NCBI GenBank assembly: GCA_019637175.1 | Contig: JAHBWD010000010.1 | Span: 62,715 to 126,714 of the forward strand | From: Labilithrix sp. | GTDB lineage: Bacteria > Myxococcota_A > Polyangia > Polyangiales > Polyangiaceae | Direction of reading: 5' to 3' | DNA length: 64,000 nt | Notes under the pieces: generated by a model | The model's database searches: none | Seen by the model: the letters and a program-made list of their open reading frames with translations, nothing else | Told to the model about the DNA's origin: nothing | Position numbers and translations under genes: made by a program | Shown: positions 38,359-42,753 of the stretch, piece after piece | How positions within the stretch are numbered: position 1 is the first letter of the stretch | Layout of the letters: each line of letters begins with the position of its first letter

Positions 38359-39528
38359 ATGTCGCTTCGCAGACGCGTCGCCACCGCTTCGATCCTCGGC
38401 GCCGGTATGATCGTCGTCGCGAGCTGCGGCTCGCGGACGGGCCTCTTCGGGGTCGACGCGCTGCCCGACGGCGCGGCGATCGACGGCTCGGCGCGCGATC
38501 GCAACGATCCCGACGCGCCGGTGAAGTGCACGCCCGGCCGGTTCACGTTCGATCTCGCCATCGCCCAGCTCATGTTCGTCGTCGATCGATCGGGCTCGAT
38601 GTCGTTCGCCCTCGACGGCACGCAGCCGGGCGGCTTCGGCCTCCCGCCCGGCGTCCTGTCGCGCTGGGAGGTCCTGCGCGACGGCCTCGCGAAGAGCATC
38701 ACGCCGTACGACACGCAGATCGCGATGGGCGCGAAGTTCTACCCCGAAGAAGGCGGCAGCGACCCCAACGATCCCGACGACGGTTGCCGCACCGATCTCG
38801 GCGTCGCCATCGCCCCCGCGCCGGGCAACGCGCGCGCGATCCTCGACGTCTTCACGACGAGCACGCCGATCGGCGGAACGCCGACGTCCGAGGCGATCCG
38901 CCTGGCGGCGCAGTACATCACCGGCACCCGCGGCGTCGCCCGCACGATGGTCGTCGCGACCGACGGCGCGCCGAACTGCAACGGCGCGCTCAACCCCGAC
39001 ACGTGCACCTGCACCGCGCGGCGCCCCAACGGATCGCCGACGTGCCCTTCGGATCAGAGCGGCCACAACTGCCTCGACGATCTCCGCACGATCGGCGTCA
39101 TCCGAAACATCTTCGACAACCAGAAGATCCCGGTCTACGTGATCGGCATCGGCGGCTCGGAGCAGCCCGCCTTCATCAAGGCGCTCGACGACATGGCCGT
39201 CGCCGGCGGCCGCGCGAAGCCCGCGAGCCCCAAGTTCTACAACGTGCAGACCGCGACGGAGATGGACGACGCGCTGGCGAGCATCAGCAGCAGCGTCGCC
39301 GGGTGCACCTACCTCACGCCGTCGGCGCCGCTCGATCCCAACGCCATCAGCGTGGAGATCGACGGCGTCGCGGTCCCTCGCGATCCCACGCGGCAGAACG
39401 GGTGGGACTGGGTCGATCAGGCCTACGGTACGCTCGCGTTCTTCGGCTCCGCGTGCGACGCGGCGTCGAAGGGCGTCACGGGCGTCACGCCGAAGATCGG
39501 CGGCGTCGTTCGGTGCGAGAGCCCCTGA
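38359..39528 (+). CDS. Secreted von Willebrand factor A (VWA)-domain lipoprotein, Cys-rich; paralog 1
   Basis: Lipoprotein signal peptide with lipobox VVASCGS. MIDAS motif DRSGSM...T...D. About 14 Cys including CNGALNPDTCTCTARRPNGSPTC. 389 aa. Confidence 0.85.
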   Translation: MSLRRRVATASILGAGMIVVASCGSRTGLFGVDALPDGAAIDGSARDRNDPDAPVKCTPGRFTFDLAIAQLMFVVDRSGSMSFALDGTQPGGFGLPPGVLSRWEVLRDGLAKSITPYDTQIAMGAKFYPEEGGSDPNDPDDGCRTDLGVAIAPAPGNARAILDVFTTSTPIGGTPTSEAIRLAAQYITGTRGVARTMVVATDGAPNCNGALNPDTCTCTARRPNGSPTCPSDQSGHNCLDDLRTIGVIRNIFDNQKIPVYVIGIGGSEQPAFIKALDDMAVAGGRAKPASPKFYNVQTATEMDDALASISSSVAGCTYLTPSAPLDPNAISVEIDGVAVPRDPTRQNGWDWVDQAYGTLAFFGSACDAASKGVTGVTPKIGGVVRCESP

Positions 39529-39529
39529 C

Positions 39530-40705
39530 ATGCTGCGGTCGTTCGGGCTCCTTCGTCGCTTCGCGTGGGCCTGCGTGCTCGGCGGCGGCGTCGTCGCGAT
39601 CGCGAGCTGCGGATCGCGCACCGGCCTCTTCGGGGGCGACGCGATCGGGGCGCTCCCCGACGGCGGGCGCCTCGACGGCACCCTCGACGCCGGCCTCGAC
39701 GGCGCGGTGCCGTGCACGCCTGGGCGCTTCACGTTCGACCTCGCCGTCGCCCAGCTCATGTTCGTGATCGATCGATCCGGCTCGATGGCCTTCTCCCTCG
39801 GCGGCACGCAGCCCGACGGGGGCGCGCTCCCGCCCGGGGTCGAGTCGCGATGGCAGGTCTTGCGCGACGGCCTCTTCACCGCGATCACGCCGTTCGCGAA
39901 CACGCTCGCGATGGGCGCGAAGTTCTATCCCGAGGAGCACGACCCGGGGCCCAACCCCCCGTCGGTCGCCTGCCGCACCGACGTGGGCGTCGCGATCGCG
40001 CCCGCGCTCGGCAACGCGCAGTCGATCATCGACGTCTTCGACACGACGAGCCCCAACGGAGGCACGCCGACGGCGGAGGCCATCCGCCTCGGCGCGCAGT
40101 ACCTCACGGGCACGCGCGGCGTCGCCCGCACCATCGTCGTCGCGACCGACGGCGCTCCGAACTGCAACGAGCAGCTCGATCGAACGCGCTGCACGTGCAC
40201 CTCGACGACGGGCAACTGCGCGACGTCCCCCGGCGGCGAGTACAACTGCCTCGACGATCTCCGATCGATCAGCATCATCAAGGACATCTTCGAGAACCAG
40301 AAGATCCCGGTCTACGTCATCGGCATCGGAGGAACCGAGCGCCCCGCTTTCCTCAAGGTCCTCGACGACATGGCGCTCGCCGGCGGCCGCGCGCGCGCGA
40401 CCACGCCGCGGCACTACAACGTCCAGACCTCCGCAGAGATGAAGGAAGCGCTCGCGACCATCAGCGGGAGCGTCGCGCAGTGCACGTACCTCACGCCGTC
40501 GAGCCCCGTCGATCCCAACGCGATCACCGTCGAGATCGACGGTCGATCGATCCCGCGCGATCCCACGCGCACGAACGGCTGGGACTGGGTCGATCAGGCG
40601 TACGGCACGCTCGCCTTCTTCGGGCCCGCGTGCGACGCGGCCTCCGGCGCGAGCCCGCTCGGCGTTCCTCAGATCTCGGGCGTGGTTCGCTGCGAGAATC
40701 GCTGA
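39530..40705 (+). CDS. Secreted VWA-domain lipoprotein, Cys-rich; paralog 2 (tandem duplicate)
   Basis: 391 aa, about 60% identical to the upstream gene over the full length, with the same lipobox (IASCGS), MIDAS DRSGSM and Cys pattern. Starts 2 nt after the paralog 1 stop. Confidence 0.85.
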   Translation: MLRSFGLLRRFAWACVLGGGVVAIASCGSRTGLFGGDAIGALPDGGRLDGTLDAGLDGAVPCTPGRFTFDLAVAQLMFVIDRSGSMAFSLGGTQPDGGALPPGVESRWQVLRDGLFTAITPFANTLAMGAKFYPEEHDPGPNPPSVACRTDVGVAIAPALGNAQSIIDVFDTTSPNGGTPTAEAIRLGAQYLTGTRGVARTIVVATDGAPNCNEQLDRTRCTCTSTTGNCATSPGGEYNCLDDLRSISIIKDIFENQKIPVYVIGIGGTERPAFLKVLDDMALAGGRARATTPRHYNVQTSAEMKEALATISGSVAQCTYLTPSSPVDPNAITVEIDGRSIPRDPTRTNGWDWVDQAYGTLAFFGPACDAASGASPLGVPQISGVVRCENR

Positions 40706-40711
40706 TCGGCG

Positions 40712-42481
40712 ATGGAAGCGATCGCGCAGGCGCTCTTCGAAGCCGAAGGAACGCGCTCGCGCAAGACGAAGGTCGCCGCGCTCGCGCGCGCGCTCGACGG
40801 GACGAGCCGGCGTGACCCGGCCCGCCTGCCGTTCGTGGCGCGCTTCCTCACGGGCGTCCTCTTGCCGACCGACGACGAGCGCATCCTCGGCGCCGGCGGC
40901 GCGCTCGTCTTCGAGGCCGCCGCCATGGTCACGGGCATGTCGTACGAAGAGCTCGGCGCGCGGGCGCGCAAGAGCGGCGACCTCGGCACCGCGATCGGAG
41001 AGGCGATCGCGGCCGCCGGCAAGACGGTGCCCGGCCTTCGCCTCGAAGAGGTCGAAGAGGTCGCCCAGGCGCTCGCGGGCACCGGACAGCGCGGCGAGAA
41101 GCTCCGCGCGCTGCGCTCGGCCTTCGAGCGGTGCACGCCGCTGGAAGGTCGATACCTCGCGCGCGCCATCCTCGGCGAGATGCGCGTGGGCGCGAAGGAA
41201 GGCATCGTGCTCGACGCGATCGCCGCGGCGTTCGGCCGTGACGCCACCGAGGTCCGCCGCGCGGCGGGCCTCGTCACCGACGTCGGCGAGCTCACGCGCC
41301 TCGCCGCCGACGATCGCTTGGGCGAGGCGCGCATCGTCCTCGGGCGGCCGCTCGGCTTCATGCTCGCGACGCCGATCGAGAGCGCGCGCGGCGCGGATCT
41401 CTCGGCGCCGCACCTCGTCGAAGACAAGATCGACGGCGTCCGCGCGCAGGCACACGTCTCGCCGTCGAGCGTTCACCTCTTCGCGCGCGGCACCGGCGCG
41501 GTCACCGCGGCGTTCCCCGACGTCACGGGCCCGCTCGCCGACGCCGCGCGCGCGGGCGCGCTGCCGCCCGCGATCCTCGACGGCGAGATCGTCGTCGTCG
41601 CGCCCGACGGGCGGCCGCGCCCCTTCTCCGCGATCCAACCGCGCCTGAAGAAGACGGGACCCGACGACGCCCTCCTCCGCGATCACCCGGTGCACTACGT
41701 CGTCTACGATCTGCTCCTCGAAGGCGACGAATCGCTCCTCGCGCTCCCCTTCTCCGAGCGACGCGCGCGCCTCGCGAAGTGGGCCGAAGCCGCGCCGCCG
41801 CCGGTGCGCGTCAACGACGCGCGCGCGCTCTCGGGCAAAGACGCGATCGACGCCGAGTTCGACGCCGCGCGCGCGCGCGGCTTCGAGGGCCTCGTGCTCA
41901 AGCGCCTCGACGCCCCCTACGCCGCGGGCGTCCGCGGGTTCGCGTGGCTCAAGGTCAAGAAGGCCCTCGGCACGCTCGACGTGGTGGTCGTCGCCGCGGA
42001 GCGCGGTCACGGAAGACGCGCGGGCGTCCTCAGCGACTACACCTTCTCCGTTTGGAGCGAAGGTGAGCTCCTCACCGTCGGCAAGGCGTACAGCGGCCTC
42101 ACCGACGAGGAGATCAAGACGATGACCGCGCGCCTCGAGACGATCGCGATCGGCGAAGAGCGCCACGGGTACCTCGCGGTCCACCCGCAGATCGTCCTCG
42201 AGGTCGCCTTCGACGGTCTTCAGAGGTCTGACCGGCACTCGAGCGGCTTCGCGCTGAGGTTCCCGCGCATCGCGCGCATCCGCGACGACAAACGGCCCGA
42301 GGACGCCGACACCCTCGAGGCCGTGCGGGCGCTCTGGGACGCGCAGCTCCAGAGCGGCCACCGCGAGGATCTGACGGCGAAGGACCGCAAGAAGACGGCC
42401 AAGAAGGGGGGCCGCCGCTCCGGCCGGCGCCCGGACGTTCGACAGAAGTCCAAGCAGCTGAAGCTTTTCGAGGACGACTGA
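40712..42481 (+). CDS. ATP-dependent DNA ligase (Lig I/LigB-like, with N-terminal DNA-binding domain) carrying a C-terminal basic tail ending in QLKLFEDD
   Basis: 589 aa. Adenylation motif I EDKIDGVRAQ (KxDG), motifs III-VI recognisable (…LDGEIVV…, …EGLVLKRLD…YAAG…R, …WLKVKK…) plus an OB domain. The C-terminal 40 aa is Lys/Arg-rich and ends in a QLxLF motif. Confidence 0.9.
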   Translation: MEAIAQALFEAEGTRSRKTKVAALARALDGTSRRDPARLPFVARFLTGVLLPTDDERILGAGGALVFEAAAMVTGMSYEELGARARKSGDLGTAIGEAIAAAGKTVPGLRLEEVEEVAQALAGTGQRGEKLRALRSAFERCTPLEGRYLARAILGEMRVGAKEGIVLDAIAAAFGRDATEVRRAAGLVTDVGELTRLAADDRLGEARIVLGRPLGFMLATPIESARGADLSAPHLVEDKIDGVRAQAHVSPSSVHLFARGTGAVTAAFPDVTGPLADAARAGALPPAILDGEIVVVAPDGRPRPFSAIQPRLKKTGPDDALLRDHPVHYVVYDLLLEGDESLLALPFSERRARLAKWAEAAPPPVRVNDARALSGKDAIDAEFDAARARGFEGLVLKRLDAPYAAGVRGFAWLKVKKALGTLDVVVVAAERGHGRRAGVLSDYTFSVWSEGELLTVGKAYSGLTDEEIKTMTARLETIAIGEERHGYLAVHPQIVLEVAFDGLQRSDRHSSGFALRFPRIARIRDDKRPEDADTLEAVRALWDAQLQSGHREDLTAKDRKKTAKKGGRRSGRRPDVRQKSKQLKLFEDD

Positions 42482-42501: not shown

Positions 42502-42753
42502 ATGCGCAAGGTCTCTCGTCTTCTCGTCGTCCTCCTCGTCATCGCCGGCGTCTTCGCGTGCAACAGCGACATCGGTGAGGAATGTGACAACGAAGGCAAG
42601 GTCGGCGGCGAGTGCGTCGAGGGCGCCGTCTGCGGTTCGGTGAAGGGCTCGCTCGTCTGCCTCAAGCAGTGCACCAACCCCGCGGATTGCGGGAGCAATC
42701 AGACGTGCGGCTCCGTCGCCAACACGACGCTCCGCGGCTGCCGCGACAACTGA
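42502..42753 (+). CDS. Small secreted Cys-rich lipoprotein (83 aa, 9 Cys)
   Basis: Signal peptide with lipobox VFAC. The mature part has a regular Cys spacing (CDNEGKVGGECVEGAVCGS...CLKQCTNPADCGSNQTCGS...C), suggesting a disulfide-knotted fold. Confidence 0.5.
   Translation: MRKVSRLLVVLLVIAGVFACNSDIGEECDNEGKVGGECVEGAVCGSVKGSLVCLKQCTNPADCGSNQTCGSVANTTLRGCRDN

Follow-up and report, generated by a model that had tools for sequence, protein, structure and literature searches.

The window analysed here, a 64-kb stretch of Labilithrix DNA, carries a gene for an ATP-dependent DNA ligase of 589 residues, whose protein is 100% identical to that of a Labilithrix sp. metagenome-assembled genome (MAG) in the Myxococcota (P0001). 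The ligase ends in a pentapeptide, QLKLF, which a first-pass annotation of the same sequence had proposed as a binding motif for the β sliding clamp, DnaN. The gene, the domains of its product and the elements of its C-terminal tail, all on the forward strand, are the following, with confidence in the predicted structure given as the predicted local distance difference test (pLDDT).

40712–42481, + strand: ligase coding sequence, an open reading frame (ORF) with its stop codon included, identified by Pfam domains, the dnl1 superfamily model and archaeal ligase structures
40736–41224, + strand: N-terminal helical DNA-binding domain (residues 9–171; PF04675 DNA_ligase_A_N, E = 2e-26), helical and with high pLDDT in the AlphaFold2 model
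41360–41959, + strand: nucleotidyltransferase (adenylation) domain (residues 217–416; PF01068 DNA_ligase_A_M, E = 5e-35), with motif I as E-D-K239-I-D-G-V-R
42020–42292, + strand: oligonucleotide/oligosaccharide-binding (OB)-fold domain (residues 437–527; PF04679 DNA_ligase_A_C, E = 3e-14), containing motif VI, R516-F-P-R519
42353–42367, + strand: SGHRE pentapeptide (residues 548–552), Myxococcota-specific, with 99% mean identity in 118 homologues
42371–42478, + strand: predicted disordered tail (residues 554–589), pLDDT <50 in the AlphaFold2 model and outside the coverage of solved homologues
42410–42454, + strand: basic block GRxSGRRPDxRxKSK (residues 567–581), specific to the Labilithrix clade, 85% mean identity
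42455–42469, + strand: QLKLF, the candidate β-clamp-binding motif (residues 582–586), which fits the consensus QLxLF, with Q, L, L and F 100% conserved
42470–42481, + strand: acidic flank E-D-D followed by the stop codon; homologues also have acidic ends

The three Pfam domains, all above their gathering scores, follow the order PF04675–PF01068–PF04679, that is, DNA-binding domain, nucleotidyltransferase and OB fold. The dnl1 superfamily model TIGR00574 is the only NCBIfam model to pass its cutoff (249.5 versus 217.8); full-length matches below cutoff were obtained with TIGR04120 (‘cisplatin damage response ligase’; 303.3 versus an equivalog cutoff of 400), PRK03180 (mycobacterial LigB; 333 versus 641) and the model of haloarchaeal LigA. 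Of the solved structures, archaeal replicative ligases come closest (9DF9, 2CFM, 3RR5, 4EQ5 and 3GDE; E ~1e-85, residues 33–546), and an AlphaFold2 model built on 56 homologues (mean pLDDT 86, predicted template modelling score 0.77) resolves the three domains with confidence. On the strength of these matches, the protein is assigned as a LigB-type (archaeal/Lig1-like) three-domain ATP-dependent DNA ligase. Because an alignment of the 56 homologues shows invariant catalytic motifs I, III, IV, V and VI (K239-x-D241-G242-x-R244 in motif I, then D290-G-E292, E392-G-L-V-x-K397, W412-x-K414-x-K416 and R516-F-P-R519), it is presumably active. Assignment to the LigD ligases of non-homologous end joining (NHEJ) was rejected: Pfam finds ligase domains only, without PrimPol or phosphoesterase domains, and the NCBIfam models for NHEJ ligases score far under their cutoffs (142.6 versus 227.75 and 125.6 versus 373.2). 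The first-pass annotation had reached the same view from the lack of an adjacent Ku gene, and that observation holds, with neither Ku nor any other DNA-repair gene within ~10 kb on either side of the ligase and no Ku in the syntenic region of L. luteola.

The last 27 nucleotides of the gene, 42455–42481, read CAG CTG AAG CTT TTC GAG GAC GAC TGA and encode Q582, L583, K584, L585, F586, E587, D588 and D589 before the stop; for these coordinates and for the length of the ligase, the first-pass annotation was exact. The C terminus reads ...RRPDVRQKSKQLKLFEDD, ending ...KSKQLKLFEDD, and the tail peptide carrying the motif is RQKSKQLKLFEDD. Among the 30 residues ahead of the motif (552–581), 13 are Lys or Arg, a proportion of 43% versus 15% in the whole protein. 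AlphaFold2 gives a pLDDT of 26–35 to the last 30 residues and no confident docking of the tail, and the solved homologues offer no coverage of residues 554–589, their matches ending at residue 546. As modelled, the QLKLF stretch looks like a typical short linear motif borne by a disordered tether.

Conservation is concentrated in this motif. In an alignment of 118 full-length homologues (58–100% identity), the check that the first-pass annotation had suggested, Q582, L583, L585 and F586 are conserved in every sequence; mean identity to the window residue is 65–79% in the catalytic domains and 45% in the linker at residues 553–566. The motif's third position is K or R in 115 of the 118, its distance from SGHRE ranges from 10 to 60 residues, and in 116 of the 118 the stop comes 2–3 residues after the motif, with nearly all of these residues D or E. 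QLxLF lies in the last 20 residues of 119 of the 120 closest database homologues (58–100% identity) and in the last 45 of all 120.

To see how far the motif extends, we scanned one genome per GTDB species, which yielded 80 loci, and read the C terminus of each ligase ORF. Fifteen loci belong to Myxococcota (Labilithrix, Polyangiaceae, Polyangiales, Myxococcaceae, Archangiaceae and ‘Myxococcales’ MAGs) and have ligases 45–74% identical to that of the window; 13 end in QLxLF, one in the allowed variant QMSLF and one in neither, so that 14 of 15 keep the motif. It was found on the ligase in none of the 65 loci from Acidobacteriota, Eremiobacterota, Dormibacterota, Actinomycetota, Armatimonadota, Chloroflexota, cyanobacteria and archaea. 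Outside SGHRE and QLxLF, the Myxococcota tails are unalignable (compare ...SGHRERASQLGLFDE from Myxococcaceae with ...KKRRGGPQLDLFGVPVADDADE from a Polyangiaceae MAG) and, for this reason, the Lys/Arg-rich 30-mer and its GRxSGRRPDxRxKSK block are, judging from these alignments, restricted to the Labilithrix clade. Myxococcaceae ligases reach their QLGLF through a linker of just 3–5 residues. The 30-residue Lys/Arg-rich tail of the first-pass annotation is therefore a true description of the window ligase and its clade, with 13 of 30 residues basic, and does not extend to Myxococcaceae.

Two other conserved elements of the tail lie outside the motif. SGHRE directly follows the last helix of the OB domain and is absent from the 65 loci of other phyla. 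The basic block at residues 567–581, with a mean identity of 85% versus 45% for the linker before it (553–566), is missing from the other Myxococcota subclades and may contact DNA or serve as a second binding site; its G-R-R-P core is loosely like an AT-hook.

Beyond these close relatives, HMMER was run exhaustively against 1.84 billion sequences, each representing a cluster at 50% identity, and provided 150 diverse relatives. QLxLF occurs in the last 45 residues of 18 of them, whereas 2000 shuffles of the tails gave 0.05 on average and never more than 2. Inside the representative proteins it occurs twice in 84,701 positions, which corresponds to a ~195-fold per-position enrichment in the last 30 residues. 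In a neighbour-joining tree of the ligase catalytic core, the motif marks three groups with many motif-less leaves between them: Myxococcota; a Planctomycetota-containing clade that includes Tepidisphaeraceae, in which the endings QLSLF, QLMLF and QMLLF are interleaved with [EQ]P[GST]LFD[GH]L; and an isolated cluster of Candidatus Calescamantes that ends in QLELFPQEE. Names were found for the distant motif-bearing representatives of Sandaracinaceae and Calescamantes only. On this tree, QLxLF recurs independently in separate ligase clades.

Some features of the distant relatives stand apart from this pattern. The ending [EQ]-P-[GST]-L-F-D-[GH]-L, seen in two Tepidisphaeraceae loci (L057 and L061) and in P0152, P0158, P0170, P0173 and P0184, might represent a clamp-binding motif in degenerate or alternative form, without the Gln-Leu pair. 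Other relatives are ~900 residues long, with a long N-terminal extension before the ligase (P0150, P0157, P0160, P0161, P0165, P0175, P0183, P0188, P0189, P0195, P0197, P0199, P0202, P0207, P0211, P0215, P0223, P0235 and P0263), and are probably the nuclease–ligase fusions of the Antarctic Dry Valley paper; RQLSLFGD is the ending of one, P0211 (967 residues).

The genomic surroundings of related ligases point to a partner enzyme. In three Myxococcota loci (L007, L008 and L014), a gene for a metallo-β-lactamase (MBL)-fold protein resembling TIGR04122, the ‘ligase-associated DNA damage response exonuclease’, ends 3–57 nt upstream of the start of the ligase match, and the same arrangement recurs in many loci of Acidobacteriota, Eremiobacterota and Thermoplasmatota. 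The window itself has no such neighbour: tblastn with three exonuclease sequences gave no match to an MBL-fold exonuclease anywhere in the 64 kb, and Pfam scans found no helicase or MPE among the genes within ~10 kb of the ligase. Thus, on the side of the ligase-associated damage response cluster, the window ligase misses the TIGR04120 cutoff and has no adjacent exonuclease, Lhr or MPE. Because its relatives have the MBL-fold exonuclease directly upstream, the context points to membership in a Lig B family that is often paired with this exonuclease, and to repair over replication. Of the ‘repair or replication accessory’ suggested by the first-pass annotation, repair is thereby favoured and replication is less indicated.

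The same type of C-terminal peptide is found on this partner. We searched 4839 ORFs of at least 120 residues, spanning 1.5 Mb (the window and 81 loci), for QLxLF in the last 25 residues, and the only matches were Myxococcota ligases and three Eremiobacterota MBL exonucleases of the ligase-associated type. Each of the five exonucleases from Eremiobacterota among the survey loci ends in ...QLALF, ...QLAMF or ...QLELFA, and the ligases of these loci are without the motif. These exonucleases are located as follows.

L026:6249–6956, L034:2–586, L043:8433–9539, L050:59–973 and L058:3–353: Eremiobacterota MBL/β-CASP exonucleases with a C-terminal QL[AS]LF-type tip (proteins P0302–P0392)

A profile search with the exonuclease extended this set, with a QLxLF end in 62 of the 120 best matches and QMTLF, QLAMF or QLSMF in three more. 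All 65 motif-ending exonucleases fall in an Eremiobacterota-like group, 61–87% identical to the exonuclease of L043; the other matches, ~31–39% identical to it and including Acidobacteriota and Thermoanaerobaculia, for the most part lack the motif and finish in an acidic tail of REERPxxEEP type. In the AlphaFold2 model of an Eremiobacterota exonuclease (mean pLDDT 91), residues 336–343, which hold the QQLALF tip, have pLDDT <50. Since, across phyla, a disordered pentapeptide is thus carried by one member of the module or the other, the simplest explanation would be a third-party receptor common to both. In Myxococcaceae, the exonucleases (L009:15302–16306 and L010:16328–17893; P0312 and P0373) lie 4–6 kb downstream of the ligase and carry QLDFFG ~15–30 residues from the C terminus, so that these genomes have a clamp-binding-like motif on both partners, QLGLF on the ligase and QLDFF on the exonuclease.

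A receptor for such a peptide is known. Natural motifs that bind the bacterial clamp have the form Q-φ-x-[L/M]-[F/L] or a hexameric variant, QLxLF having the highest affinity and position 3 being tolerant; they are usually flanked by acidic residues or by a free C-terminal carboxylate, both of which contact Arg residues around the pocket (PMC11139829). QLKLF followed by EDD-COOH agrees with this description in its QLxLF core, in the tolerated Lys at position 3 and in its acidic, carboxylate-terminated C-terminal flank; the first-pass annotation had recognized the fit to the consensus, and the match is in fact to its optimum (PMC11139829). The window ligase therefore combines a consensus motif, a disordered terminus and conservation amid diverging flanks. 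Its pentapeptide follows the same consensus as Pol II (QLGLF), Pol IV (RQLVLGL), UmuC (QLNLF) and Hda (QLSLPL), and its placement at the extreme end of a disordered tail with an acidic or carboxylate flank is that of other clamp clients with terminal motifs (PMC11139829). Unlike those clients, the carrier is an ATP-dependent LigB-type ligase with a strongly basic upstream flank, and its motif is a putative one.

Taken together, motif sequence, predicted disorder, conservation and recurrence make it likely that the QLKLF tail is a real tether to the β clamp, and the clamp-binding interpretation of the first-pass annotation is to this extent supported. We infer that a catalytically intact LigB-type ligase would seal nicks in this Labilithrix-like myxobacterium while QLKLF and its acidic residues, on their disordered tail, dock into the hydrophobic peptide-binding cleft of DnaN. 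Tethered in this way, the ligase would be brought to clamps that remain on DNA at primer–template junctions and nicks; its sealing activity would be coupled to repair synthesis or gap filling, in a bacterial parallel to the PCNA–Lig1 system. The Lys/Arg-rich linker would serve as a clade-specific flexible tether that may also touch DNA. A broader proposal is that the Lig B and MBL-exonuclease module, thought to be of archaeal derivation, operates on the β clamp in several phyla, having acquired a docking peptide independently on the ligase (Myxococcota, the Planctomycetota-containing clade and Calescamantes) or on the exonuclease (Eremiobacterota); we put this forward tentatively, with a little less than even confidence.

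Several observations weigh against a clamp tether or limit its reach. The K-S-K residues immediately before the motif are basic; since flanks are mostly acidic and removal of N-terminal positive charge raises affinity for the clamp (PMC11139829), binding could be of modest strength. In the Labilithrix clade, K or R occupies position 3, where known motifs slightly prefer Asp. Clamp binding does not explain why the GRxSGRRPD block and the SGHRE pentapeptide are conserved. In an Archangiaceae MAG (L011:10001–11641), the ligase ORF stops directly after SGHREGE and lacks the motif; none of the alternative reading frames checked at this locus restores QLxLF, which excludes a frameshift, and the loss of the tail appears to be genuine. 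Finally, neither protein of the Acidobacteriota ligase–exonuclease pairs has the motif, so tethering to the clamp is no general trait of the module. A search for dnaN itself, with an E. coli DnaN query, gave no match in the window or the 81 loci.

Other roles for a conserved C-terminal peptide can be set against these data. The tail might dock another protein of the repair module (the MBL-fold exonuclease, the Lhr helicase or the MPE nuclease) rather than DnaN, and the distribution seen, with the ligase as carrier in Myxococcota and the neighbouring exonuclease in Eremiobacterota, would also arise from a direct contact between the two. We consider this unlikely: the receptor pocket would have to switch proteins between phyla, Myxococcaceae carry this type of motif on both proteins at once (QLGLF and QLDFF), the Labilithrix clade retains it with no exonuclease within 10 kb, and the pentapeptide matches exactly the consensus of the β clamp, a receptor that is known and universal. 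An action within the ligase is also conceivable, in which the tail folds back as a latch over the DNA-binding domain or the OB domain, closing the ring or auto-inhibiting it, or binds DNA non-specifically through its basic residues. Ligases do often complete their encirclement of DNA through appended loops or latches (PMC7470946), and the Labilithrix linker is 43% K/R; such a role is nevertheless quite improbable, given that AlphaFold2 docks the last 30 residues nowhere with confidence (pLDDT 26–35), that Myxococcaceae retain QLGLF with almost no basic linker, that a DNA-binding tail has no need of four invariant non-basic residues (Gln, Leu, Leu and Phe) at its end, and that the same pentapeptide occurs on the unrelated fold of the MBL exonuclease.

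Conserved C-terminal peptides on disordered tails can also be degrons, and the peptide might be a degradation or localization tag, for instance one read by a protease adaptor. The C-terminal degrons known from bacteria have hydrophobic ends such as LAA. The acidic terminus of the ligase is unlike these, and in the 4839-ORF scan the motif is tied to DNA-repair enzymes only, making a tag of this kind a very slim prospect. Chance or phylogenetic inertia without function is effectively refuted: the 120 closest homologues are indeed related, and raw counts among them overstate the number of independent observations, but the motif persists down to 45% identity, where the tail can otherwise no longer be aligned, it recurs in other clades and on another protein, and it is found in 18 proteins versus the 0.05 expected from shuffling. 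Tethering to the β clamp remains the reading that we favour.

Several known systems resemble such a ligase in part. The closest evolutionary analogy is NucS/EndoMS of actinobacteria, likewise an archaeal-type repair enzyme in bacteria, whose five C-terminal residues, [EK]-[LY]-[TR]-L-F, bind the β clamp and are needed for its activation (PMC6159515); NucS/EndoMS is, unlike the window protein, an endonuclease, and its motif lacks the Gln of the full consensus seen in the ligase. Eukaryotic Lig1 and the archaeal replicative ligases share with the window ligase the DBD–NTase–OB fold (DNA-binding, nucleotidyltransferase and OB domains) and the logic of tethering to a clamp by a short motif. Their PCNA-interacting peptide (PIP) box, Qxx[LIVM]xx[FY][FY], is N-terminal or within the DNA-binding domain and binds PCNA, not DnaN. 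We rejected a PIP box (Q-x-x-[LIVM]-x-x-[FY]-[FY]) as an identity for the window motif because positions 7 and 8 of QLKLFEDD are D-D in place of the aromatic pair; the archaeal relatives in the survey (L052, L063, L069 and L078) have no QLxLF tail. Phage T4 DNA ligase is an ATP-dependent ligase tethered to a clamp, gp45, by an unstructured motif (PMC6212786; PMC12121391), which in its case is a loop inside the NTase domain and binds the phage clamp, as opposed to the C-terminal QLxLF of the window ligase.

Among bacterial ligases, the window protein shares its domain architecture with Lig B of the Lhr–MPE–exonuclease cluster (P. putida Lig B and M. tuberculosis LigB), an accessory ligase studied by the groups of Shuman and Williamson as part of a repair module (PMC7470946; PMC10140301). 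It differs from the ligases of that cluster in scoring below the equivalog cutoffs, in having no partners within 10 kb and in its additional SGHRE and QLxLF tail. NAD-dependent LigA, which belongs to an unrelated enzyme family, is another bacterial ligase with a proposed link to the β clamp. The first-pass annotation described clamp binding by LigA as well established, and this is only partly borne out. An interaction with the β clamp is reported for the E. coli enzyme from native polyacrylamide gel electrophoresis, with no affinity determined (PMC11139829), and one is also reported for H. pylori LigA; for M. tuberculosis LigA, a paper reports that a direct interaction with the clamp was not detected (PMC3335792), and the property is accordingly not uniformly well established.

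For ATP-dependent ligases of bacteria, the statement in the first-pass annotation that clamp binding is not generally described agrees with the literature covered. A LigB-type ligase is not described as a clamp client in those passages of the clamp review that mention ligases (PMC11139829), nor in the ligase review (PMC7470946), and ligase reviews, including the latter, name targeting sequences for clamps only for PCNA and the eukaryotic enzymes. In the full-text literature searched we found no link between a bacterial ATP-dependent ligase and DnaN or a clamp-binding motif; most subscription journals lie outside this coverage, and an earlier mention is possible. Motif class and enzyme family are each known, and their combination, together with the recurrence of the motif on the exonuclease, appears to be undescribed.

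If the ligase does bind the clamp, it would act at clamp-marked 3′ junctions and nicks, its function would be sensitive to inhibitors of the clamp pocket, and deletion of 5–8 residues would give a separation-of-function mutant. An ATP-dependent ligase and, in Eremiobacterota, an SNM1/Apollo-like exonuclease would join the short list of β-clamp clients, and NucS would be matched by a second case in which a repair enzyme of archaeal type has adapted to the clamp of bacteria. On the broader, tentative proposal, the module would be a bacterial counterpart of the PCNA-coordinated nuclease-plus-ligase toolbelt, and its substrate would be clamp-loaded junctions such as post-replicative gaps or repair-synthesis tracts. 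The conserved docking peptide offers a concrete and cheap experimental handle on the role of Lig B modules.

The remaining neighbours of the ligase in the window include two paralogous genes for von Willebrand factor A (VWA)-like lipoproteins, a small Cys-rich secreted ORF, and genes for an S46 peptidase, a Wzz/tyrosine kinase, a P450 and a Ser/Thr kinase, among others; L. luteola has the same local synteny around its ligase. The VWA-like genes, at 38359–39528 and 39530–40705 (both + strand), are tandem paralogues of ~390 residues that are weakly VWA-like and have N termini resembling lipoprotein signals. The second ends 6 nt before the ligase ATG, and a copy directly upstream of the ligase is also present in L. 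luteola and in L002–L005. These genes and the ligase may be co-transcribed, without an evident functional link; we rejected the VWA-like lipoproteins as functional partners, as they are syntenic only within the Labilithrix clade and their products are apparently secreted. The Ser/Thr kinase and xanthine dehydrogenase genes of some loci were likewise set aside, as they reflect synteny of the lineage or widespread domains and have no functional link to the ligase. Downstream, at 42502–42753 (+ strand), an ORF of 83 residues starts 20 nt after the ligase stop; it is Cys-rich, has an N terminus resembling a signal peptide and gave no Pfam match. In L. luteola, PBP and DUF4274 genes follow the ligase in its place.

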